This document shows, piece by piece, positions 21,759 to 61,125 of a DNA stretch of 64,000 bases. Source of the stretch: Owenia fusiformis. Its lineage: Eukaryota. Numbering within the stretch: the first letter of the stretch is position 1; every line of letters starts with the position of its first letter. Both the position numbers and the translations under genes were made by a program. Under the pieces are notes generated by a model, which had not been told where the DNA came from, ran no database searches, and saw nothing but the letters and a program-made list of their open reading frames with translations. The stretch lies in contig CAIIXF020000001.1 of assembly GCA_903813345.2 (NCBI GenBank), positions 18,476,001 through 18,540,000 on the forward strand, in the 5' to 3' direction.

Positions 21759-24700
21759 TTATAGTTCACTGGATTCTGACTCATCACTAGAGAAGCTACG
21801 CTTATCTTTAATTGCTTGAGAAACTTTAGAGTTTGTATCGCAAGATGAACTTTTAACTTCTTGCTGATCGGTTGATTCTTGGGTGTCTTTGCTTGTAGAA
21901 TCAGGTGTGACACGCCCACTTTCCTGACCTTCGACTTTATCTGGAAATATAAGGTAACTTTTTTAAAATACAAAAAAATGAAAGAAATTAACAGTCTTAT
22001 ATCAATATCAAGCATTACACAGAAAATAGGAGGTGATGCACCAGAAAATTAGCACAATATTGTTCCAGATAAAATTTGTCAGCAGGTCAACTTCTGTGGT
22101 CATGTGTTCTTCATATTCCACAGCCTGTGTCTGCTCTAGTTACTGTACCTCCATACCCAAACAGCTAATAGACATTGCTTCATCTATGCAGCCCCGTTAA
22201 ACTTGGAGGACACACAAGGAAGAATCCCCGCGTGAAGACGAGAAAATCAGTGATGCATTGCCTTTATGTTCAGTATATTTCTAGTTAAGAGATATAATTT
22301 TGAAGGCATGCACCAGAATAAATAAGAAGCCAGAAGAGCAAAATGTTGGAACGAAAATTCAATAAATAGTCCTAGCAAACAGATCATATTTTCATTTGAT
22401 AGCCATGACCTTGCTCATTAAACCTTTGAAGACATTGAGGTTACATTATCCCTTATAAAATTTGTTGCACAAAATATGACACATTCCATTTTTGACATGG
22501 TCTCTTCAATACACGTCTATTACCTTGCTCCTTCAGATCTGTACTTCCTGGTTGGTCCCTGGGGATGGAGTTACCTCGGTTGGGGGCGGAGACCTGGCTT
22601 GGGGCAGGGCTTGAAATCTGAGGAGCTTGTGGACGCTGTTTCTTTGCAGCATTGTATACATAGCAGTAACAGCATCGGAAACCTAGAAATATCAATTTAT
22701 TACAAGGAGTTCACAAGACATTAACAAGCAAAATGTCACTACCTGCCATTTGTTACAGACACTGAATGCTAGACACCAACTGCCAGACACCAACTGCCAT
22801 ACACCATCACAAAAAGTTGGAGACCACCACTTTTGGTGGTGACATCATAACTTAAGTGCAGTATTCAAAAGTTTGATATATTGATCTACAAAAAATTAAT
22901 GTTTCTGTGAAAAAAGCTTACAAAGGGAAGTATTTACATTTATGCCATTCAAAAATGTTACATATGTTTTTCAACGGGAAAAACACGAACAACAAAATAT
23001 ATCAGACCAAATCAGAATTTTTCACATCAAATACTCTCTGCATTTTGCACAATAATATCAAGATTCTCATATATCTACTTTCGTTTTTAGTGTTTCTTAC
23101 TTAGATATTCAAACTCTTCTTTGAGTGCCATTCCATTATGTGAATGACATTGTTTGCATATAAGGGCATATCGGTTCTGTGGGCCATCGCCTAGAAGGTA
23201 CTCTATGAGTTTATCTGCAGTTGAACATTCCCGTGGCAAGATGGGACGTGGCATGGGGGGACCAGGTGGCCGACCTGAAACAGCATTCAAAAAATTTGGA
23301 AAATCAGTTTACAAGAAGCTATCATTGAAATATGATTGTTTATACACAAAAATCAATAGAAATAACATCAAATCAATTAAGTCCAGACCAATCAGGTCAG
23401 CAATATTGACTATCAGTTTTCTACCTTAACCAATATGATATTTCCCTTGTATCTATAGGCTCTATATGTATTTTAAATTCTAAATGGAATTTTGCTATTT
23501 TTTCAAGTTGTGGCCCCTTTTGATCATATGATTTCAATTGCATGTCAACTTATAACTACCAGTTCATATTATTGAAATTTATAATTAAATATTTTCAATT
23601 TTTCATTCAGAAATATTAGGTTTTGTTCAAGTGAATTTATGTGTATGTTCAATCTACTTTATATCAATGAAATGAATGTTTGAAAGAATGTGGTTAAACA
23701 TGTCTCAGGGAACACCTTCTAAAACATCTTTCTCAAATAAATGCTTTTTCTAAATATCATACTCGTAAATAATTTTAATTTTTCTACAGCTCTAAAAGCA
23801 ACTTCCTAATACTGAACACATTTTCCACTATTTTGCATGCAGATTAGTTATCTAAACTAATGCATACTGTCTCTAATGATTACCAATTTTCTATATACTG
23901 ATATCAAGACTAGTATCATAGCTTTCCAATGGTACCAAATTTTCCAGAGGGTGTCTCGACTTTTAAACTCCTTACATACAGGACTTCCCACTCTGCACTC
24001 AGGTACTAAAGGTGTTCACTCTATACATATTTCACCATTATGAGAAATCAATTGTATCGGTTTATTCTAAGACACTTTAAATCAGAGAGATGTGATAAGT
24101 GTCAGAATGACATTTCACCGTAATACACCATTTGTTCCGAGCCAATGTGAGAAGCTTGTAAAGCACTACATGAGATAGCAAATTAATGAATATCAACATG
24201 CAACCTTCCAATGTGAGTGCATAGCAGACCAATAAATAAAATAATTGTGCAGGAAAGGTGCAATTTTGTCTAAAATTGAGCTGTATCTATGAGTAACACA
24301 ACTGCAGATTTTGCAAACCCTCTCCAGAAAGGTTTTCCACAAACTGATTGCAATCTTATGGTAATTTTAATTCAGAGAAAATAACATGCTCTATTGGGGA
24401 TCTTTGGTCTCCCTATCAAATCTATACAATTGTTAAATTAATTTGAACATGTTATTTAGGGATCTGGCTTTATTGTGCCTTATGAACACTGACAGGCTTT
24501 TACATGTATCTTCACTTTGGAAGAGGGCTTGAAGTTTAATTCAGGTCAAATAATTGTGTGAATAGTTAACAAATAGTAAATTATACAGTTTGATCTTGGT
24601 ACAACAGCACATCATTTTATTTATGGCCAACAATTTAAATTGAATAAAAAAACAAAAACAACCTTTCAACAGAAATAAATGAGCAGATTTAACGAATTAA

Positions 24701-27700
24701 ATAGAGCTGGCATAAGCCTTATAGAGCGTTAGCATACTTTTACATGATATCCTTTTGCAGGCATATGTATCCTTCGCATCTAAAACGACACAATTGAGAT
24801 GAAAAATGTTAATATTTTAAAAATTGCTTTATGTTACTTCTGAAGATCAAACTCACTTTAATGCTAGGCTACAGTACATCTATTTCAAATAAGCTTGTGT
24901 TGTTTTATAGAACACAATTCAAAGTGCTTAGTAAAACTCTAAAAGATAGTTTTAAGCATTACTGGGATTGTGATATTGTTAGTGGAAGTTTTTTTTTTAA
25001 ATTCTTACATACCATACAGTGGCCCCCTCTGTTGGCTCATGTTGGCCTGGGACATTGGAGTGCCTGGGGGTCCTGTACTTGGCCCTGGGGTGGCTTTGGT
25101 ATCTTTGGGGGGTTGGGAAGGAGTGGCATTTGGGGCACCTCGGGATGCAGCAGATCTCTGACGGATTTCTAAAATATGACAAATAAATTTTGTAATTGTC
25201 TTTATTTCTAACACTTACAATGCAGTAGTACAATTACATGAAGTGCCGTAATGAAACAGATCACTTAAAAATAAAAGGAAACTTTAACTTAATGTGACCT
25301 TTTCTATTTACTTCCATGTTATCTAATATAACATTTATATCAGGTAGTCAATAGTCATTGAACACATGACAATTTCACTGACCTTGACCTTGAGGGGTCC
25401 TCATGGGTGTAGCACCAGGAGGTGGTTCTAACTTTTTGTAGTTCTCTGGATCAAACTTCTCCAGTATTTCTTTGGCTTTCTTATATGTCTCCTTCTCCAT
25501 CACCTCATTAAGCTGTAGTATAGATATCATTTTATTAATTTCATGGACATCCTTTAAGAACCCATCAATCTCTAAACACTAAATGATTTTTTACTGTCTA
25601 GCTAAATATAGATTTTGTAACACATTTAATATATAATTACCTATTATGTCCCTATCATTGAATATATGCCTGATGTCTGTCATCAATATAGCCTGAGCTT
25701 ACGAGGGCTATATTTCAACAGAAGAAGATACAGACATAATTTTTATCTTTATTTCCATATGCTACGTTATATTAATGACGTCACACGTCTGTTTGCGAGT
25801 GAAATTTGGAAGAAATGAAACATGATGTCATAAGATTGTCATGGTAAAAAAGTTTGGCGGCTATACAGGAATATATAGCTGACCTTCAGCTCCATTGACT
25901 TCCATACAAATGCTTCGCTAGGTATGTAATACTCAATAATACGGACATAATTGTTGTATTACATACCTTTACATATTTCCATGGCGACATTATATCAATG
26001 ACGTGTCTGTGTTCGAGTGAAATTTGGAAGAAATGAAACATGGCGTCATAAGATCATAATGGAAAAAAGTTTGGCGGCTATACAGGAATATATAGCCGAC
26101 TTTCAGCTCCATTGACTTCAATACAAATACTTCGCTAGGCATGTAATACAAGAAGTTATAGTTTGACAGCTGGTATATATATTATAAACATGAATCAGAG
26201 CCATTTTTTGAAAAAAATTTCAAATGGTTCAAAATTATCTGTCCCAAATGTGAATGCCTCTTTGAAGGATCCATGTAAAGGTTAAACTACTTTTAAAACA
26301 TTACACGGGCCTTAAACATGTTAACTGTGCTTTGATTGGACTTCTTACCATTTGTTTTTTCCTGTCCTTCAACTCTTCAAGGGCACTTTCTGAAACACAA
26401 AGATTACCAGGCATCTTGTAATTTTCATATAAATAGTACTGTGGGTACTGGGCTCACATTGTGTTGCTATATTGATGTTGAACAATAATAACAGGAATCC
26501 TATTGACAAAAGTTTTAAAACTGGCCAATTGTTGGCAGATGGACAGACAGACGGACGGAAAGAGTGTTTGATTGCAATAGCTCACCATGTGAGCTAATAA
26601 TGATAACTCATAACCCCTTCCTTTATATAAGTGTTTTCCTTTGAAATACAAGTTAACATTGGCAATGTGTAAACTTTATACAGTGTGAACAATAGTAAAA
26701 TAGGACAAAATTATACAGTATATGAAATAAAAAAAAATGATGAAGTCAAAAAATCTACATGTACTTTGAAGAAACAATGGATGATGTCTGAAGCATTGGG
26801 AGGATGGATTTTATTAACCCTGTGATATTTATTAAGAAATTAAAAAATTAAGAAATCTCTAGGCCATTTTTTCATTTACAATTAGACAGTTCTTGCCAGT
26901 GCCAGCATACCTCAAAAGTCCAGTAGTGCTTTATAGAGTAGACTGTCCTGGCAACCACTTAAGGCAGGAAATCTGGACAGAGACTCTCTTACATGTATAT
27001 ATTGCTAGGTGTGAAGAGTGGGGGATGTGACATTAGCTCACTTTGATTCTAAAAGATTAACTTGTGAAAATATTATCAGACATGAACAGCAAGGTAGGTT
27101 ACCCTGATTGCAACAGTTCTTTTCAATGTACTAGTAACCTCAGAATAGTTAGGGCAATTTTACAATTCAGCCGCTCCACCCCCACAGCTGGTAGCCATCG
27201 TGACTCAGATAACAAATCATTTCAAATTAACCCCACTGACTTTTTCCCAACCAATCAGTGAGCAGAAGGAAACATGTTTAAATAAATAAATAATGTTTCA
27301 TTTTGGTCATTACTGGATAAACAACCAGAACAACGGCAACGCCAAAGCGTAGCGAATCCCATCGAACAGAAATGGCTGGCATTTTTACAAACGAATAGCA
27401 AATATCATAAAACAACACACCAGAAAGGCCACCATTTTCAAAGTGGTTGCTCAGTAGCCAAGTTGTCATCAGGAGAAATAATATGCTTTTAAGAAGCCAC
27501 CTCTAAAATTTTTGAAAAATCGCACACGTACTTGTAAAATAACACACATAAAAATGGTGGCCATTTTTCAAAATGGCCGACTACTCCCCAAAGTTTTATA
27601 AGACAATGTGCCATGCTTAAAGTATTCACATATCAAATATGAACAAAATCGCTCCACTACTTTTCGAGTTATAGTAAAATACGTTAACATGACGGCCCTT

Positions 27701-30700
27701 TTTCAAAATAGCCACCTTCTACCAAAAGTGTCATTAGAAATAGACAGTGTGCGGTGCTTATAGTATTCACATACCAAATATGAACAAAATCACTCCACTA
27801 CTTTTCGAGTTATAGTAAAATATGTTAAAATGGCGGCCATTTTTCAAATTTTTTTCAAAATGGCCACCTTCTACTAAAAGTGTCATAGGACAGTGTGCCA
27901 TGCTTATAGTATTCACAAATTTGAACAAAATCGCTCCACTACTTTTCGAGTTATAGTAAAATACGTTAAAATGGGGGCCATTTTTCAAATTTTTTTTCAA
28001 AATGGCCGCCTTCTAGCAAAAATGTCATAGGACAGTGTGCCATGCTTATAGTATTCACATACCAAATATGAACAAAATCGCTCCACTACTTTTCGAGTTA
28101 TAGTAAAATACGTTAAAATGGCGGCCATTTTTCAAAATGGCCGCCTTCTACCAAAAGTGTCTTTAGACAGTGTGCAATGCTTATAGTATTCACATATCAA
28201 ATATGAACAAAATCGCTCCACTATTTTTTGAGTTATAGCAAAAATCGTAAAATGACGAGTAAAGGCCGCCATTTTTCAAGATGGCTGCCACGTGCTTCTT
28301 TAATATCTACATTTGTAACATTATTAATGTCCTTTATAATTTTTTTACATTTAAAACATATTGCTATTACAGTTTTACATATTGCACCTAAATTACTGTA
28401 AAATCCGCACTAAAATGGCCGCCATTTTGAAATGAGCGGCCATTTTGAAAATCGGCTTTTGAGCAGAACTTCTACCCCCATAGGGTATATGTGTACAAAA
28501 TATGAACAAAATCGGGCCAACCGTATTTCAGTTATTGCCCGGACGGACGGACAGACGGACGGACGGAGGCGTTCCCTATATCCCTCCGAACTTCGTTCGA
28601 TGGGATAATGACTTCAGACAAAATGACCATATAAAAGAAAACCACTGTTCTGGCAATGACAAGCTCTGATTGGCTTGGCGAGGTCTGAGGTTTGTCTTAA
28701 ACTGAGTGTAGAGGAAACCTTTTAAGTAGCTTATTCAAAGGAATGCAAAGGGTAAAGGTAAGTTTGGCAAGGAGATTTAAACACACTTGGTGAATTGTTT
28801 GGTTTACTTGTTAACTGAAGGTTGGTTTGAACCGCTTAAATCTAAGTCTAAATACAAGTAAAAACAAAATTTGTCCATGTTAGCTTAACACTTGACGCTT
28901 AATTTGTCTACCATGCTAACATCCTGTTATAAATAAATTTGATCTTGAGATAAATATTATCTGTAACATTACATAAAGAGGTACATAGAGAGATGTATAG
29001 CGAGTGCCAAATAGCAAGTTCATTCAGCTTGGCTTAATGCGATTTACCTATTTCAAAGGATATACTTTTTTGTTTTCAACAATCATAAAAATAGAATAAT
29101 TTTATAGGTGAAGGACGCTAACACAAAGTGAACTGATGAATATGGCCAACAAGGAGACACTCAAGGAGACAGAATATCAAATATAAGCATTCCTTTAAAT
29201 ATACACGATACTTCAGCAAGGAAGGATACCAATTTATTTAAAGAATGGAAACCTACATGTACAAGAGAGAGATAAATATCATATCTACTTTATTAGTGAT
29301 TCTCAATGTTGCACCTTATACAAAAGGTAATTTTAAAAAATAATAATTTAGTTTATTTATATTGTACAATTTTAGGAAGATGACATTAAAGGCCCTGTAC
29401 ATTAGTTTGAAAATATAGTTTGATCATTGAAATATCACTTTTCATGAATTGAAAAACCATTTGAGATATATAAAGTTGTTAATCTTATATTTTCATATTG
29501 TGGAACACATTATTTTCTGTACTCAAACGAAAAGATCAGGTGATTGTCATATTATCATTATTTCAACCATTCAATCTATGATTTAATGCGAATATAAACT
29601 TTAAAAGCTCTCAAACTCTATGAATTTGAAGAAAATCTGACAAGCTATTTTATTGAAATCATGACGACAAAAAGCAGAATGCCACCACAATTACTTTTCT
29701 GAAAACGCAACCAGCATGACAACTTTACATCAGTGGTGGAGTTATAACAAATAACAAAAAAGTAAAATATTGAAAATCATAATGTGAGACACAACCTATT
29801 CAGACTGAACCCGCAAAACACTTGATATGAATAACACAAGCAAATGTGATGTGAAGCAAACAATTAATCATTTTTGAATTTGAATTTTGTTTTTCAACTT
29901 ATAAGTGTTTATGTTGGATCCAAAATTTTGTGTTATTGGCACATATTCATTTTAAGAAGACAACTGAAAAAATTTGTGAAATCCATTTTATGGAGATATT
30001 GATATGCAGTATTGTTTGACCTCTTTCTCCCCTATTATTTTGAAATTAATGGTTGGCCTGACAGTGACAGGTCATCTCAACCCAGTAAAACTAAACCCAT
30101 GTCTGAAATTTTGAATAAAACATTCCTCTTATAAGAACAACCCTCTCTCACCAAATGTGACAGTTGTAATCAACAAATAGACCAATTAATTGATGTTCAT
30201 CAAAAGTTCTACAATAATGGCAGCAATCTTAAAAAAAATATTTCTTTTTTCCAGGGTCCAGATATGGAGCTGAGGATGGAACAAAATACATTATACCCTT
30301 AGTGCTATCTCTTACTATCCTAGTGATAGTTACAATAATTGTGTGCTGCCTAACCAGCAAGAAACAATACTTTAAGAAAATTGTAGAATGGTGTTCTACA
30401 ATTGGTTCAAAAAATGGTACAATTACAAGGAAAACACATTCAAAAACAATTCAAAATGCAACCTCCATCCAGATGATAGTTTTGCAACAGAAACCAACAG
30501 ATATGATAGAAATGGAAAGTGGAGGGGACATTCCAGTGGAGCCTACATGCATAAATGACAATTATTCCTGTAATCAAAGCGAGGAACATAGTGACACAGA
30601 AAAACTTTTGCAAGATAAATGTAAAATATCTCATTCTCATCCCCCAGAGATATTCTTAAAGGGGCAACAAAGACTATAGAGAGTAGTTTGGAATAATTTT

Positions 30701-33700
30701 TGAAAAAATGTTACAATTTTACTATATCTCTTGCTCTCATTATTCCATGTCATTTCTATAATAAAAGATTAGATTGAAGATCTGGATTTGATTCTTGTGT
30801 AGTCTGCCAAAAAAATAAAGAAGGAGTACCCTTCAATTTTGACATTTAAGGTATTCAATAACTTCTGTATTTGATCAAATATCTCAATTCAGAAAATGAA
30901 AATATTGCTTCTACATTTCACCATACTCGAGTCTTTGCTGCAACTTAAATTTAGAAATTATGATAAAACTACTCAAACATACTTTGGTCACATATCGTAT
31001 GTTGAATCTGATCATTGTGAGTTGTAACGAATTTGTTTTGCACTATATTTGGTGAGCAATTCATCAATGAAATTTAATTATCTTATCTTATATATTAAAA
31101 CACTAAAAGACTGACCCATGTGTTCTTTATTGTGCACCACTTGTGAATACCATACATAAACTTACCATTTTTGGAGATTCTCTTCACAAAATACCAATGG
31201 AAGATTCTTTTTAATAGCCATATTCTGAAAAAATATAAAAAAGTGATTAATAAAAATGGACGACATAAAAAATATGGCAATTGCTCAATAAAAGTGTAAT
31301 TATGTATCGGATGTCCCAAAAAATGAGAAACGTTTTGCCAAGTATTTTCTCGGCAACTGATCAATCAAATTCACTGAAAATTTGTACAGAGTAGCCTGAG
31401 AGTATCATTAGCAAAATCTTAAAAAGATCAAGTAAATATTCCGTGAAAATTAAGAAATTCAAAATAGCATGTCAAAAATCCCAATACCAGAGCTCAGCGA
31501 TGAGACCTCTATAGTGTTTGTACCAGCTATCAGGTGATAGCATTTGTTTATCAGTCAAACTACTACTAGCCTGTTTGTGTGTCATGTCTACCTAATTCAT
31601 TTCATTCTTTCCAAATATCCAAAATCCATTCATTCTCAAAATTCATTGGAGGTGATATTGTTAGAATAAATACGGAAAGGTATTTTGCTTGGAAATGGAT
31701 TAATAAGAGACTATTACATTGATATTGGTAATTTTGACATATTGTCTTCAATTCTAAAATACACACATAATACGAGGTCAATTTCTTAGACATTTACAGC
31801 ACTAGCAGAAGATACCCTAAAGTGCCTCAACTTGAATTTTAAAATAATTTGACTCATCTATTGCTGAGAAATTACTTGTCAAATTGTTGTTGTTTTCACC
31901 ATTTTCACCATGAATGAGGTTAATTTGTATGCAAATATTTTACCCGTATGTTAATAGTAACACCCACACCTGGTAACTGAAAAGCTAGCCAGTCAAGAGC
32001 AAATATATCCAGCAGCTCCATATAATGGTTTATGAATTCCTCACTTCAGCAACCAGGACGTTATAGGCCATTAACACAACGCAACCAAGACGTTATGAAA
32101 TTCGCCAGATTATTTGCCAAAGTCAATGTGTGCTTTTTAGGGGATGTGCGCTCTTTAGAAAGAAAATGGTATTGATGAACCAACAATTTTGAACATTTAA
32201 TTTTGTCATATAGAGTATAAAAATATATGCAACCAGTTAAACCGGTATCTACCCAATAAAATACATTGCTTTTGAGTTAAAGGCCCCATGTAAAGTTTAA
32301 ACCACTTTGGCTTATATTATAGTCTTACCCAATTTTATCAAAGTGTGATATGTGAAACTTTTTTTTTTAATTTCAAAAAGTGGTTTTTGATAGACTTTTT
32401 GTTCCAAAATTTGTGAATTTATTTAAAACCAACTTTTAGAGGTCACTCATATCTTCTAATTAGCCACAATTCATACCAATGCATAGCATACATCTTCCCA
32501 TGTTTTTTGCCGAAAAAAATAAGAAAATCGGTTGATAAACAAGCGAAAAATGAACTAATCAGTGCATGAAAATGGTTCTGAGAAAAATGCATTTCAATAT
32601 TTTAGTTCTCATAGAAACCAATGGTACAATGATATCTAAAACATAATCTATTCTTCCTTTTAACCTGGTTAGACAATCAACATTGGTTTTTTATGAAAGT
32701 CTAGCATATTTAGAAAAGATTGACATCGAAAAAAAAAATTCAATCAATCACTAATGTTTCAAAATATTTTTGATAAGCTAAAACATTGAAGTGGCCCATT
32801 AAATATGACATTTTATTATTGAAATAATGTGTCTTTTGTTCAATCTTTGCATTGGTGTTAAAAATATAATCTTTTTTGAAATGCATTAAGAAATAATTGA
32901 TGATTAAGAAATTTCAACTTTTTTGAAAAATGGCGGGAAATTTGAATATTTGAGAAATGAAATGCTCACAACTTTTTTTTCAAAAAAAATTTTTTGTTCA
33001 AAAATCTCTAAAATCACTTTTTAAGTCCTGACAAATAGTAAATGAATGATAAGAAAATATTTTCAAACTTTAGACGGGGACTTTAAGCTATCAGCTTCTA
33101 TCCTGAATTTTGCCCACCAGTCAAATAACAGTCATAAGTATTTTCAATACTTTGTCTAATTTCAAAGTACTAAATCAGGCACATGGAATCAAAAATGTCC
33201 AAAAAAGTAATAAGTTCAAGATTTTCATACATTGTACCAAGAAATGTCCCTGAAAATCTCAAATCAGTACGAAATGATATGTAGCAAGTCTAAAATTCCA
33301 AATTCCAATGCAGTTACAAAGCCCATACAAGGCATTAACAAGCAAAATGACACCACAAGCCATTTGCTACAGATGCCACCCATCAAATGCCAACCAGTTG
33401 GACACCATAACAATATGTCACTTCCACAAGTGACAATATGTCACTACCACAAGTGGTGACATAAAATGATATGTAGCAAGATTCAACTTACATGAGAGGA
33501 AATGTTAATAGTGGTGTAGAGTACAATAGTTTATCCTGCCATCTCTCTGGCATATAATAGAAGTAAAAGAGCAAGCCTGCTATGATGTAACCCACTATAG
33601 AGTACAGAAGGAGGGTGCCTATAATCTTCTTCTGGAGGTCAAGGTTTTGCTGTTTAACTTTCTGGAGGGATTCAATCTCCTGAAAATTATAAATAAATAC

Positions 33701-35634
33701 TCAAATTCAATGAATCAAGATGTGGTCAGTATATCATAAGAAGCAAGCAACAAACAAATGATTCATTGTATTAAATGATATTGGCGTGTATGAATGCTTG
33801 TGTCTGTCTGAGTTACAGGAATTTTTATGATAACTTTTCACTTAAAATTCAATTTTCTTACTACATACCTCTTCTAGCCCTTCTAACTCCTCCACAGTTG
33901 ATTTCTTTTTCTGGAAACAAACACAAATTGAGTAAAAGATGAGATGAATAAAATCACTATACCGGGTAAACCTGCATGTTATTTTCTGGTACAAAAGTAC
34001 AAAGTCATTCATGGGGTACTTTTTTGACATTTGGTATGGCAATGGACCCAAATTTTAGGACCTGGTATGAGAATGCCTCCTAAATTATGACTTTTGAGGT
34101 ATGGCAATGGTCGTATTTTTCCACTTTCTGGTATAAGAATGGTCATGGAAAATATGTTACCTCTCACTTGTGGTATGGCATTGGTCTAGTTGTTACACAT
34201 GTTTGAGGTTGTCTTGGGTCATTTTCCTCAAAGATCTGCCTTCTTCCCGGGGCTTTACACAATAAATACCCTTGGCCTTATATTTGGACATTTGGTATGG
34301 CATTGATCCTATATTTGGACATTTGGTATGGCATTGATCCTATATTTGGACATTTGGTATGGCATTGATCTTATATTTGGATATTTGGACATTTGGTATG
34401 GCATTGATCCTATATTTGGACATTTGGTATGGCATTGGTCCTATATTTGGACATTTGGTATGGCATTGGTCTTATATTTGGATATTTGGACATTTGGTAT
34501 GGTATTGATCCTATATTTGGGCATTTGGTATGCCATTGGTCTTATATTTGGACATCTGGTATGGCTCATTAGAGGATGAGATGACAGGTATGAAAAACTG
34601 AGTTGAAGGGTAACAGAAAATAACTATTCTCAATCTCATAAATATTTCTAAAATAATATTAAATATTTTTTCACAACCTTGCTTTTTTAGAGAGTACATG
34701 GCAAGTGAAATGTGATGATGTCTAGCCATGTTGGCTAGAGACTCGAGTAAACCTATAGTTTGAAGGTATCAATACAAACTTGGACAAAATTTCCTGAGGA
34801 GACAATATTCTTATTTATACCTAGTTCAGCAGGTTTGAATCTGAGATGACAGATGAGGGGTGCACACAGTGACCACTATCAATCTTCATTCTTCAATATT
34901 AGATACATTATTCAATATTAGATACATTACATTATTCTATTATATTAGATATTAGATAGATGGTGCTGGCTGTGAGTGCTCTCTATCTTTGCCAAAACTG
35001 AGATGACGGGTAAGAGTTATTCTGTGCCAGCCAATAGTAAACTAGGTATTATTAAAAGGAGTTTCACACACATAAAGGAAAATATAATTCCACTGTATAA
35101 ATCCATGATCCGACCAATTCTAGACTACGGAAATAGCATCTGGCATCCAAGATTCTTAGGCGATAACAGAAAAATAGAGCAAATACAAAGACGAGCTACT
35201 AAATTAATACCTGGAATAAAGGATAAGCCCTACCAAGAAAGACTGAAAGAGCTAAAGCTACATTCACTTCAATATAGATGCAGAAGGGGCGACATGATCC
35301 AAGTCTTTAAAATCATGAATGGAATCGACACAATAGAGCCAAGCTCCTTCTTTACTAAGGCTACCACTACCACCAGAGGGCATTCCTTGAAGCTATACAA
35401 GCATCACTGCAACACTACTGTGAGAAGAAACTCCTTCAGCAACAGGGTTATTGATGACTGGAACAGCCTTCCCGAGATGATTGTGATGTCTGACAGTGTA
35501 GATCAGTTTAAAGGGAGGCTAGACAGATTTTGGCAAACTTACCACTATGATATAGTTTAATTAAATATGAACTATAAATAAGAAAGATCTGAGCATTAAC
35601 AGGACTGTTAGTTAAGACCTACAAGCTCAGAATC

Positions 35635-56109: not shown

Positions 56110-56922
56110 ACTATACGCTCGCTTATTTTATGCTTTAATCAACAGACGCTCTCTTGGATGTGTGGCTTTAGTGATTGGAGTTGAAGCTAACAACAATACG
56201 CATCATTTGAGGTATGACATGTGATATTTATTGATAAACTGACTCCAAAATCAAGGAAAAATAAATTTTCTGAAGATCTCGTGTCTTGTCCTTGAGTATA
56301 TTTATTGAACCTAGACACCACTAAAGAAGAGGTAATCTTGCAGAGGTCGGTGAAACTGAACCTGATATTGGCCGAATTTGCTGAAATCATAGGCTAGTCT
56401 AGTAGATCTATGGCTGACGTCTGGATTTCAATAATAATTACTAATTACTGGATGTATCATGTGGGTATACCATATTATTAAAGATTGCCAAAATGTTGAA
56501 ACAGGCTTTTTCTGACAAGTAACAAAAAATATGGATGTTTAAAAAACATTAAATAACTGATCAAAGCTCTTGGCATGATAAAAAAATATTCAAAGTTATC
56601 AGACTTTCAGTTCAGTATATAATAGATAGATGGAGCTGATTGTTGTTCACATTTACATGTATATCATTGACTACATTCCAAATCTGTATCTTAACACTTA
56701 TAATACTGAATAAAACAACAACCTTTAAAATCTGCAATTGCATATAGCAAGTTTGGATGTGCAGAAGCTCTCTTCTGTACTATGTCATAGAATATATTTT
56801 AATCCTCACTGTGATAAGCAAGGAGAAAGTTTGATTGAAATCATGGGCTAACAAGGCATTTTATACTTCCAGGTGCATTTAACATTATTCCTTGAAGAGG
56901 ACATGCTGGGTGACTGCTAACA

Positions 56923-59900
56923 ATGGACAGCACAGACAGCAATCAATTACACAAAGGACATTTTAATGCAGTTGTAACATATGAGAGTGAAATGGTTAAG
57001 AACCCATCACATTCAGATACAATACAGTGTGGTATAAATTCTCCGTATTTAAACATGAGTCACACCAACTTTGATTATCAATATAGCCAGTTGAACCACT
57101 TAATCCCATCAACGACTACAGTGTCTAATGAAGCTAAGGAAATGCCTATGCAACAATATTGGCAGCATCCACATATGAGCAATGTGATCAACTGTAGAGG
57201 GAACTCAAAGCCAGAATGTAGCATACCAGGAAATAAAATATCTGGTAGTGTAAAATCAGGAAATGCAATACCGGAAAATGCAATATCAGAAAGTGCAATA
57301 CCAGAAAATGCAATATTAGGAAATGCAATAACAGAAAGTGCAATGCATAGAAATGGTCCATCAAACATGTATCAAGGTCACTCTGGTTTAAGAAGTGACA
57401 TTTATGGCAATCAACAGATCAATTATAAAGTTCAAACTTATGATAGAGACTATGTATCTCCTGGGATACAACAGTCTAACAAACAACATCTGACGCAATT
57501 TGGAAATGTGCCCCATGACGAATGTCCTATTATCAAACAAGACAATGAAAGAACTCTTAATCAAGATAATTCTATGGGCATTATAAAGGCCCAACATTTA
57601 GAACACTCAAATAATGTATCTCATTGTTATAGAAGTGACAATAAGCAACCTTCAATAACCCTGTCTCCACCATACACAGTGACATATGGGGCACACTTGG
57701 ACACTAGTTTAGGAACAAGTCGCACACCTACATCTGTGCCCACACAGGCCCCTGTTACATATACTGGCATCAAAAATGAGCCTGGTTTATTTAAACCAAA
57801 GGACTTCATTAATAGCGCACATACTTGTTATGATCCAAATGTACCAAGCTATCGTAATGAAGGGATTAATCACAATTACCTGTCAGTGAATGGACCTTAC
57901 AATCATTATAGTCATACAGGTGATACTACAAAATGGTGTGATAGCAACAAACAACCTGTTCATGAACAACATGTGATTGTTCCCAGCTTCAACCATTTTA
58001 AAATGTTACAAACAGAATCAGCTGATTTATCAAAGAAGCAAGTAACCTCTGATCTAGTGACTAAAGTTAGTCCAAGCAAAAGGAAACCTCGATCACCTGC
58101 TAAGCCAAAACCTGATTTAAACATAGATCCTAATTTTACAATACATAGTCCATTGGCATCTTATGTACTACAAGAGGAGCATAGCAATGTTATTGTTGAA
58201 CAGTTTCTGAGGTCTGAGTTTACACTGTGTGAGGCCCTCTCAAAAATAGCATTCAAACATCCAGTGGCTTACATTTATAACCCACTGAATTATGCCATAA
58301 GAACCCATGTTGACTTCATACAGAAATATTGCACAACTGAAAAACAGATTTTGCTACTGGGAATGAATCCAGGTCCATGGGGTATGTCTCAAAATGGGGT
58401 AAGTAGATGTAAAGTTTTTAAATGTCTCCACCACAAGTGGTGACATATTGTTATTCTCCAACATTTTTTGTGGATGGTGTTCGGAGTTCAGTGGTTAGCA
58501 TTGGAGTTCAGAGTCAGTTACAAATGGCAGGTGGAAACATTTTGCATGTTAATGCCTTGTTAATAAATGTAATTGTCTTACTCTTATGACGTGTATCATA
58601 TATCTGTCTGTGGGTGTCCAGATTGATTGTATAACTTTATTGCTGTGATATTGGAAATTTTTCACATTTTTTGATTCCGTTTTCATTCAAAACATCTTTT
58701 AAATTTAAGCTTTGTCTGTTTAGTTAAATGGATGTAATTAGTGAAAATAAACCCTGTCTTCTAGCTAGAAATGTTCAAAAAAGAAAGGTTGCATTGCATG
58801 TTTCCACAGAACATATGATATTGATATCTAAGAAAGACTCTTTCTGAAATATTTCTAGGTGCCTTTTGGAGAAGGTGATATTGTAAGAGACTGGCTAAAG
58901 GTGACAGGGAGTGTTGGTAAGCCACTTAGAGAACACCCACAAAGACCTATACATGGACTAGATTCTACCAGGAAAGAGGTGTGTTAACTTAGATCATTAC
59001 ATGTACATGAATGTTAATACGTTTGAAATGCTAGATGATTTGCATAAAATCTCTGATAACCCCCTCCCCTCATACTCATTTTCTTACAATGTTAAGAAGG
59101 GAGAGGAGGACAAATAAGGAAATTGCTTCACATCAGTAGTTTTTTTAAAACAAAGTCTACCAGCCATGGTATTAATATGTATCATTAGCATCGTACTTCA
59201 TTTAAATGTGTTAATGAGAACTATAATTTATAGGCCTACATGGTCTAACATTTGATGTCTGCTTGTCTAACAATTTCAAGTGGATTGTACCAGACTCTGG
59301 AAGTTAGTTTGATATTTTCATGTCAGTGTACCAGACTCTGGAAGTTAATTTGATATTTTCATGTCAGTGTACCAGACTCTGGGAGTTAATTTGATATTTT
59401 CATTTCAGTGGTGCCAGACTCTGGAATTTGATTTGATATTTCTGTGTCAGTGGTACCAGACTCTGGAATTTAATTCTATATTTTCAGGTCAGTAGTACCA
59501 GACTCTGGCAGTTAATTCTATATTTTCAGGTCAGTGGTACCAGACTCTGGCAGTTAATTCTATATTTTCAGGTCAGTGGTACCAGGCTCTTGCATTTTTC
59601 TATATTTTCAGCTCAGTGGTACCAGGCTCTTGCAGTTTTCTATATTTTCAGCTTAGTGGTACCAGACTCTGGCAGTTAATCCTATATATTTCATGTCAGT
59701 GGTACCAGGTTCTTACAGTTTTCTATATTTTCAGGTCAGTGGTACCAGGTTCTTGCAGTTTTCTATATTTTCAGGTCAGTGGTACCAGGCTCTTGCAGTT
59801 TTCTATATTTTATGTCAGTGGTAATAGGCTCTTGCAGTTTTCTATATTTTCAGGTCAGTGGTACCAAGCTCCTGCAGTTTTCTATATTTTCATGTCAGTG

Positions 59901-61125
59901 GTACTGGGCTTTTGCATTTTTCTATATTTTCAGCTCAGTGGTACCAGGCTCTTGCAGTTTTCTATATTTTCAGCTCAGTGGTACTAGGCTCTTGCAGTTT
60001 TCTATATTTTCATGTCAGTGTACCAGACTCTGGGAGTTAATTTGATATTTTCATTTCAGTGGTACCAGACTCTGGAATTTAATTTGATATTTCTGTGTCA
60101 GTGGTACCAGACTCTGGAATTTAATTCTATATTTTCTGGTCAGTGGTACCAGGTTCTTACAGTTTTCTATATTTTCAGGTCAGTGGTACCAGACTCTGGC
60201 AGTTAATTCTATATTTTCAGGTCAGTGGTACCAGGCTCTTGCATTTTTCTATATTTTCAGCTCAGTGGTACCAGGCTCTTGCAGTTTTCTATATTTTCAG
60301 CTCAGTGGTACCAGACTCTGGCAGTTAATTCTATATATTTCATGTCAGTGGTACCAGGTTCTTACAGTTTTCTATATTTTCGTGTCAGTGGTACCAGGTT
60401 CTGGCAGTTTTCTATATTTTCAGGTCAGTGGTACCAGGCTCTTGCAGTTTTCTATATTTTTATGTCAGTGGTACTAGGCTCTTACAGTTTTCTATATTTT
60501 CATGTCAGTGGTACCGGGCTTTTGCATCTTTCTATATTTTCAGCTCAGTGGTACCAGGCTGATGCAGTTTTCTATATTTTCAGCTCAGTGGTACTAGGCT
60601 CTTGCAGTTTTCTATATTTTCATGTCAGTGGTACTTGACTCTTGTAGTTTTCTATATTTTCAGGTCAGTGGTACCAGGTTCTGGCAGTTAATTTGTGAGT
60701 TATGTATCAACCCTCAAAACTTTTTTGCGAACTGCTTCGTGCACAACATGTGTCCTTTGGCTTTTATGACACATTCCGGTAAAAATGTCACACCCCCTCA
60801 GCTTGGAAAAGAACAACTTGCTTCACTCAATGCTGCTTGCGATGAGGCAATATGCGACATCATAAGAATCCTGAATGTGAAATATGTGATAGGTGTTGGG
60901 AAATTTGCTGAGATAAGGGTTAAAAAAGCCCTGTTGTCTAAAGGAAATATGCCAACTGGATTAAGAGTTAGTAGTATAATGCACCCAAGTCCGATTAACC
61001 CTGCAGCTAATAAAGGATGGGTCAACATAGCCAAGGGACAGCTAGAAGAAATGGGGCTGATACATATTATTACTAACGGTGCTTTGTGTGAAATGGAGCC
61101 TGCAGAAACTACACCTGGAATTTGA
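56923..61125 (+). CDS. SMUG1: Single-strand selective monofunctional uracil-DNA glycosylase with a long N-terminal extension (3 coding exons, ~685 aa)
   Basis: Exons 56923-58398, 58859-58978 and 60664-61125, all phase 0. Motifs YIYNPLNYA, LLGMNPGPWGMSQNGVPFG, EHPQRPIHGL, EVSGTRFW, CFVHNMCPL, IGVGKFAE, IMHPSPINPAANKGW. An acceptor at 56872 implies an upstream non-coding exon. Confidence 0.93.
59285..60690 (+). repeat. ~34 x 39-43-bp tandem repeat made of the SMUG1 intron-2 acceptor plus the start of exon 3, with a ~650-bp higher-order duplication
   Basis: Unit TTTCTATATTTTCAG|GTCAGTGGTACCAGG(C/T)TCT(T/G)GCAGT; the last copy (acceptor ending at 60663) continues into the conserved coding sequence. 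Confidence 0.95.

Follow-up and report, generated by a model that had tools for sequence, protein, structure and literature searches.

A spliced gene antisense to LNPK inside one of its introns in Owenia fusiformis, with a probable single-pass membrane protein as its product

Does the long fourth intron of LNPK, the lunapark gene, house an independent gene on the opposite strand in Owenia fusiformis, and is this gene translated into a membrane protein? The question arises in a 64,000-nucleotide (nt) stretch of contig CAIIXF020000001.1 of this annelid, a marine worm (hereafter the window, in which all positions are counted). A reading of the window made from its letters only (the sequence-only reading) had placed a complete transcription unit opposite to LNPK inside the 4.8-kb intron 4. 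We observed that this intron, 4776 nt in length, does contain spliced RNA of the plus strand, and it is close to certain that a spliced plus-strand transcription unit within the LNPK intron is real. We consider it probable that this unit is an independent two-exon gene, antisense in intron 4, which encodes a taxon-restricted single-pass membrane protein of 168 residues. Translation of the nested transcript into a membrane protein, taken by itself, is quite likely.

Stranded RNA across the nested gene and its ends

The window is low-GC animal DNA (GC content ~0.31–0.39) and carries LNPK on its minus strand, where the lunapark zinc-ribbon (PF10058) was identified at 23090–23308 (E = 2.1e-16, 59.9 bits, cut-off 24.2; Pfam). 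Translations of 33491–33700, 31098–31364, 26304–26453 and 25378–25578 contain what we take to be further lunapark-like exons, and our numbering of LNPK exons and introns assumes two exons upstream of 33492.

Sequences were mapped to positions 28600–33800 from two contig sets, X1 (presumably RNA) and X2, and from two raw paired, stranded RNA sequencing (RNA-seq) runs, X15 and X17, of which ~6% and ~12%, respectively, were sampled. Splice joints are reported from the best 15 of 37 joints. As X2 holds spliced LNPK mRNA (a 1246-nt contig of this set spans the LNPK joint 31224>33492), we regarded it as an RNA run. The contigs of X1 and X2 extend into parts of introns, and therefore on their own tell little about splicing.

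The joint 29326>30255, which the sequence-only reading had proposed for the nested gene, was found in both raw runs with GT..AG ends, in 21 reads with 16 starts in X15 and in 38 reads with 27 starts in X17 (the joint was recorded as 29324>30253 with a 'cut +2'). In all 59 of these reads the first mate lay on the minus strand. The reads over the LNPK joint 31224>33492 (CT..AC; 10 in X15 and 4 in X17) all had their first mate on the plus strand. Since the two mate directions are opposed, the nested RNA comes from the plus strand, as had been proposed.

The depth of coverage followed the same strand. With the first mate on the minus strand, the ATG exon reached depths of 34 (X15) and 38.6 (X17) in the bin 29122–29295, and the second coding exon was covered 60–75 times over 30340–30687 in both runs, while the depth in the opposite direction over the nested exons was 0–1.5. 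For LNPK exon 3 (bin 33472–33645), depths of 13 and 9 were measured in X15 and X17; the nested gene was thus covered about five times more deeply than the host exon in these samples. In the contig set X1, the word depth was 297 in the bin 30514–30687, at the end of the coding sequence (CDS), as against ~12 in the adjacent bins; this jump could be caused by a short word common to a repeat, or by more RNA.

The 5′ end of the transcript is less sharply defined than the coding junction. An inverted CCAAT box near 28669 and a donor motif AAG/GTAAGT, with its exon side ending at 28757, had been pointed out together with an AG ending at 29107, and all three are present in the sequence. The first intron that had been drawn from them, 28757>29108, was absent among the best 15 of 37 joints, which is compatible with its rare use. 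The contigs of X2 cover 28749–29008 and 28998–29311 gap-free; therefore the first exon may start near 28749 and take in 28758–29107. Raw-read depth upstream of 29122 was just 0.1–5, every first mate being on the minus strand. A start near 28749 would lie ~80 nt after the inverted CCAAT box, with the predicted 'intron 1' included in the exon. Alternatively, most transcripts may start near 29108–29160, since molecule ends are seen at 29160 in X15.

Some of the reads skip 230 nt of this upstream region. The joint 28867>29098, with 4 ambiguous letters, was recorded in 3 reads of X15 and 9 of X17, whereas the contigs of X1 and X2 keep the 230 nt gap-free. A canonical intron was rejected, as GT..AG, GC..AG or AT..AC ends are not obtained with any of the five possible cuts. 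A second copy of the stretch was not found in the window. In all probability the sampled animals differ in length from the reference at this place; a non-canonical intron is less likely.

At the 3′ end, the unit had been expected to run over 28660–30820. The polyadenylation-type AATAAA signals that had been pointed out are indeed present, at 30760 and 30814, and the RNA runs further, to ~31035. In X15 and X17 the depth fell in steps from ~60 to 18–19 (30688–30861), then to 9–19 (30862–31035) and finally to 1–6. As the depth persists beyond 30820 up to ~31035, a more distal site is used in addition to those of the two AATAAA signals (an ATTAAA lies at 31094). The nested transcript ends ~70–130 nt short of LNPK exon 4. 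In its 3′ untranslated region (UTR) we observed length differences from the reference at 30723, 30809, 30892 and 30921, of which the last two were present in most of the reads covering those sites. The features of the nested gene and of its host intron are collected in Table 1.

Table 1. Positions of the nested gene, its parts and the adjoining LNPK exons in the window (uORF, upstream open reading frame)
Feature	Position	Strand	Basis
Inverted CCAAT (ATTGG), possible promoter element	28668..28672	+	Sequence; ~80 nt upstream of X2 contig start 28749
Upstream part of leader/first exon (weak support)	28749..29107	+	X2 contigs, low raw-read depth
230-nt stretch skipped in some reads	28868..29097	+	Joint 28867>29098, AA..AT ends
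ATG exon: leader with uORF, then 27 codons + 1 base	29108..29326	+	RNA depth; donor 29326/GT
uORF, 16 codons (14 from second ATG at 29142)	29136..29186	+	Sequence
CDS part 1: M1–K27 + first base of G28	29245..29326	+	ATG 29245; exon end in phase 1
Nested-gene intron, 928 nt, GT..AG	29327..30254	+	59 spliced reads
CDS part 2, stop TAG at 30677–30679	30255..30679	+	Pyrimidine-rich acceptor ending 30254; RNA depth
Predicted transmembrane helix I40–L60, C58–C59 at its end	30290..30352	+	Kyte–Doolittle 19-residue mean 3.04
DTEKLL, D141–L146	30593..30610	+	Fits [DE]XXXL[LI]
3′ UTR	30680..31035	+	RNA depth
LNPK intron 4, 4776 nt	26390..31165	−	Donor GTAAGT after exon 4; acceptor ..TTTCAG before exon 5
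LNPK exon 4, 59 nt	31166..31224	−	Acceptor at 31224 used in RNA joint 31224>33492
LNPK exon 5, 41 nt	26349..26389	−	Splice signals and frame only

Reading frame, predicted protein and relatives

Joining 29245–29326 to 30255–30679 gives a CDS of 507 nt and 168 codons for amino acids. It had been predicted that an ATG exon ending in phase 1 would be joined in frame to the acceptor at 30254; the transcript is spliced in this way and the exact predicted product is obtained. The main ATG has an A at −3 and a G at +4. A short open reading frame (ORF) ahead of it, which the sequence-only reading had also noticed, lies at 29136–29186; its ATG at 29142 likewise has an A at −3 and a G at +4, and its stop is 58 nt before the main ATG.

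We compared this frame with chance expectations. From stop to stop, the frame of the second coding exon (30233–30679) measures 148 residues and is one of 51 frames of at least 90 residues in the window. When the spliced transcript (1000 nt; 29108–29326 plus 30255–31035) was shuffled with its dinucleotides kept, an ATG ORF of at least 168 codons appeared in none of 5000 shuffles (mean 44, maximum 120), and an open frame of at least 148 was likewise absent from 5000 shuffles of the ORF region of the second coding exon at its own composition (maximum 143). A mean hydropathy of at least 3.0 over 19 residues was reached by the nested ORF only, among the 213 ORFs of at least 60 residues in the window, and at least 2.5 by three of them; in composition-matched, first-order resamples of the CDS, these values were reached in 0 and 6 of 5000, respectively. 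As the shuffles and resamples never match them, the frame and the membrane helix are not by-products of AT-rich composition. The coding exon is rich in A and not in T (A 0.39, T 0.26).

The predicted protein agrees with what the sequence-only reading had described, namely a signal-like start, a transmembrane helix with a Cys–Cys pair and a basic stretch, and a tail of ~105 residues, in its hydropathy and its residues as well as in a structure model. Residues 1–9 include K7 and R8 and are followed by a hydrophobic core of 13 residues, I10–V22, whose hydropathy peaks at 2.6 over 11 residues; to judge from its length, this core would be short for a membrane span and of the kind usual in signal peptides. 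Residues 23–38 are polar. The predicted membrane helix is flanked on its C-terminal side by K63 K64 and K68 K69, so that the product combines a single span with a positive flank. According to the positive-inside rule, a basic flank marks the cytoplasmic side of a membrane, and the lysines after the helix would therefore place the tail in the cytoplasm. The tail (residues 62–168) has cysteines at 74, 126, 133 and 150 and N-X-S/T sequons at N81, N95 and N134. In the model made by AlphaFold2, with no alignment, residues 2–25 and 37–80 are helical, and residues 81–115 and 120–168 have a predicted local distance difference test score (pLDDT) below 50. The DTEKLL of the tail, a candidate acidic dileucine signal, belongs to the region that the model shows as disordered; it may plausibly be there by chance, as ~0.16 such matches would be expected, by a rough estimate, in a tail of that length.

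From this build, a mode of action may be proposed. The segment I10–V22, placed after K7 and R8, would serve as a signal peptide or as a start-transfer sequence, and ~11–17 residues would be left outside the membrane. I40–L60 would span the membrane, and the paired lysines behind it would keep a largely disordered tail of 105 residues in the cytoplasm. The Cys–Cys pair may be palmitoylated, and short linear motifs in the tail, DTEKLL for example, may serve for sorting or for the recruitment of partners. The protein would then act in the manner of the many small adaptor or sorting proteins of membranes whose ectodomain is all but absent. We put forward such a role, that of a putatively palmitoylated sorting or adaptor protein working through short tail motifs, as a tentative suggestion only.

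The same build is found in a number of small single-pass proteins. TMIE, TMEM210, SMIM33, LIME1, opalin, stannin and the herpesvirus protein UL132 have in common with the nested product a short N-terminus, one helix with a basic flank, and a tail of low complexity. The nearest clusters in the ESM Atlas were an unnamed chordate one and those of TMIE, TMEM210, UL132, stannin, SMIM33, LIME1, opalin and TMEM119, at 0.85–0.89, where the bar is 0.9 and shuffled proteins score 0.8 in one third of cases. These neighbours would point to a class of build and not to a family, and serve as leads only. With Pfam, no match to TMIE, TMEM210, LIME1, opalin or SMIM33 was obtained, either for residues 29–168 at E ≤10 or for the whole protein at E ≤0.01.

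Two Pfam families did match residues 29–168 weakly, both over the membrane helix: DUF3377 (PF11857), the membrane and tail region of membrane-type matrix metalloproteinases, with E = 0.099, and MLANA (PF14991), the melan-A family, with E = 0.22 and 12.2 bits over the membrane and juxtamembrane part. Melan-A, too, is small, crosses the membrane once and has a sorting signal of the dileucine type. Membership in its family was rejected, as the score of 12.2 bits compares with a gathering score of 27. Both matches are driven by hydrophobic composition, because scores of 12–13 bits are far under the cut-offs of 26.5–27.

The nested gene is already known to public annotation as an uncharacterised protein. 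When the translation of the second coding exon was searched against 5.8 billion clustered proteins, 6 word candidates led to a single match, and the identical protein proved to be present in NCBI and UniRef under the labels 'unnamed protein product [Owenia fusiformis]' and 'Uncharacterized protein'. The public record is 100% identical over all 168 residues and has no name, domain or function attached to it. The sequence-only reading had called the gene unrecognised; this was wrong, because the exact protein had been annotated already. Its further statement that the product belongs to no recognisable family was borne out, as Pfam, PDB and phmmer all gave no relative. Thus, Pfam assigned no family to the whole protein at E ≤0.01, a sequence search of the PDB returned three rows at chance level (E 0.1–0.66), and a phmmer search over all 1.84 billion representative proteins matched the protein itself only. 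The product falls in one protein cluster with one member. The ESM Atlas contains it, with structure matches that all have template modelling (TM) scores below 0.5. In these searches of annotated proteins, covering the 5.8 billion clustered and the 1.84 billion representative sequences, the product is restricted to its taxon, and on this comparison of sequences the nested gene is a taxon-restricted orphan.

Such a status is not rare in this genome. The genome paper of Owenia fusiformis gives 26,966 genes for the annotation, with 99.29% of the transcripts backed by RNA-seq, and states that gene models overlapping repeats were dropped; 80.69% of the transcripts have a BLAST match in another annelid and ~19% do not (PMC9977687). 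About one fifth of the transcripts therefore resemble the nested gene in having no annelid match. The gene also shares features with two wider classes: with nested antisense genes in animal introns, its small size, few introns and opposite strand to the host, and with de novo or orphan membrane-helix genes, its homologue-free status and its helix.

Polymorphism and rival readings

Fourteen of the best-supported substitutions that set the RNA reads apart from the reference fall within the nested exons; the CDS has 10 of them and the leader the other 4. In addition, 182 further substitutions and 18 further length changes lie beyond those listed. The listed CDS changes were synonymous at S46, T48 and V53 and non-synonymous in L16I, I52L, G82C, Q105R, Y131D, E137K and E137V. 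The last two are probably one haplotype, because they affect the same codon at matching frequencies. We observed that the membrane helix took all three of the listed synonymous changes and, besides these, only the conservative I52L, whereas the five listed changes in the tail all altered the protein (p ~0.03 for the split between helix and tail in a post-hoc Fisher test made by hand). No length change was found among those listed in the 507-nt CDS, as against 4 in the ~356 nt of the 3′ UTR. Frame and membrane anchor look maintained, and the tail looks fast-evolving or weakly constrained. There is no clear sign of purifying selection outside the membrane segment in the read polymorphism.

Several points weigh against a gene that makes the membrane protein described above. 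The evidence for its product is at the level of RNA and sequence. The leader carries a uORF, and further upstream ATGs are added if the transcript starts near 28749. No relative was returned by the protein searches. The counts that bear on constraint rest on the best-supported differences listed, and among the 10 CDS changes in this list 7 are non-synonymous and 3 are synonymous, third-position changes, which is about the neutral ratio. The three sequons and four cysteines of the tail would equally suit an extracellular domain. Finally, the structure model, made with no alignment, is of low confidence, with a pLDDT of 52.1 and a predicted TM score of 0.27.

Of the rival explanations, the one that survives best keeps the gene coding and changes only its topology. 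The product could be an uncleaved two-span hairpin with both ends in the cytoplasm, or a melan-A-like type III protein that has no signal peptide, and we regard either outcome as possible though doubtful. The evidence at the N-terminus is divided. The hydrophobic core of ~13 residues is short for a span, but residues 2–25 are modelled as one helix; T26 and G28 would make an acceptable −3/−1 cleavage site, but the proline after the site at A23 would be unfavourable to cleavage. The weak MLANA match over the membrane and juxtamembrane region adds to the case for a type III form. Among the coding readings, the type I form with a cleaved signal, which would have ~11 extracellular residues, is somewhat more likely than the uncleaved hairpin or the type III form.

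We think it unlikely that the nested transcript is non-coding, a spliced antisense RNA of the intron with a frame that yields no functional protein and with a role in the regulation of LNPK or none. Such an RNA would have to reach, by accident, an ORF length that 5000 shuffles did not produce and a helix strength unmatched in the 212 other ORFs of the window and in 5000 resamples, with a positive flank placed just behind the helix. Its splice would also have to join in frame an ATG exon with a strong ATG context, and its listed CDS changes would have to leave the frame unbroken next to a 3′ UTR with 4 length changes. What speaks for this explanation is the balance of 7 non-synonymous to 3 synonymous changes listed, with no excess at third positions, the presence of the uORF, and the finding of 0 homologues among 1.84 billion representatives; homologue-free models are common in the annotation as well (PMC9977687).

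An origin as part of a transposable element, or as a unit driven by one, with the ORF as its passenger or remnant, is highly improbable: although a repeat-rich stretch with a 141-bp tandem array (27551–28254) lies directly upstream and repeats are plentiful in the host intron and the next one (bins 32254–33123), no second copy of 28661–31100 was found in the window, the exon depth in RNA and contigs is not repeat-like except for the X1 bin at 30514–30687, Pfam gave no match to transposon proteins, the protein stands alone in its cluster, and models overlapping repeats had, by the methods of the genome paper, been removed from the annotation (PMC9977687).

Surroundings and meaning of the locus

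The repeats around the nested gene were recorded in their own right. The sequence-only reading had placed a Helentron-like element directly before the gene; what we observed there is the tandem array and the short repeats behind it. The array consists of 5 copies of its 141-bp unit with 83% matches. After it, at 28413–28570 and immediately before the nested gene, come an 18-bp repeat that is nearly palindromic and a run of (GGAC)n type, the short repeats reaching to ~28570. Within LNPK intron 3, a block of ~810 nt at 32277–33086 was covered on both strands at depths of 100–340 in the raw RNA runs and at word depths up to 85,678 in X1, with hundreds of reads having loose ends at 32276/32277 and 33086/33087; this block is a high-copy transcribed repeat.

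A 36-nt piece, 33296–33331, was met by 41–83 reads per end and run, and the flanks of these reads were constant (agreement 0.96–0.99) but foreign to the window. It was rejected as a micro-exon of LNPK, AG/GT signals on the minus strand being absent. Since the translation of the surrounding stretch resembles that of 22695–22844, a repeat is likely; the piece probably belongs to such a repeat or to RNA transcribed elsewhere in the genome.

Further away, an open frame of 509 residues at 56914–58443 (+) is followed by a frame at 60598–61125 (+) that matches the uracil-DNA-glycosylase superfamily (PF03167; E = 4.3e-4, 20.8 bits, cut-off 24.3), and between the two lies a long stretch of tandem repeats (59496–60640). 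By this weak match, which is below the cut-off, the region 56914–61125 (+) is probably a SMUG1-like gene. A frame of 194 residues at 34976–35560 (+) resembles the C-terminal portion of reverse transcriptases from retroelements; no Pfam family was assigned to it at E ≤0.01.

What does the nested gene add to the biology of this annelid? Of the sequence-only reading, the observation was partly confirmed and the interpretation partly supported, and the value of the locus is mainly that of a check, in that the coding part, the junction and the product of a public gene model were recovered from the letters of the DNA. The biology as such is ordinary, as small membrane proteins confined to one species are common, and so are nested antisense genes. 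One further proposal, which we hold tentatively and would not call probable, is that the gene arose from the LNPK intron in the oweniid lineage, by birth de novo or by divergence past recognition, and now makes a robustly expressed membrane protein with a constrained anchor and a near-neutral tail. The locus offers a clear host, high expression and polymorphism data, and it would have modest value as a case of gene birth if the corresponding intron of relatives is found without the frame. If that proposal is true, the locus would show a young gene for a membrane protein in the course of its fixation within a host gene that is conserved.

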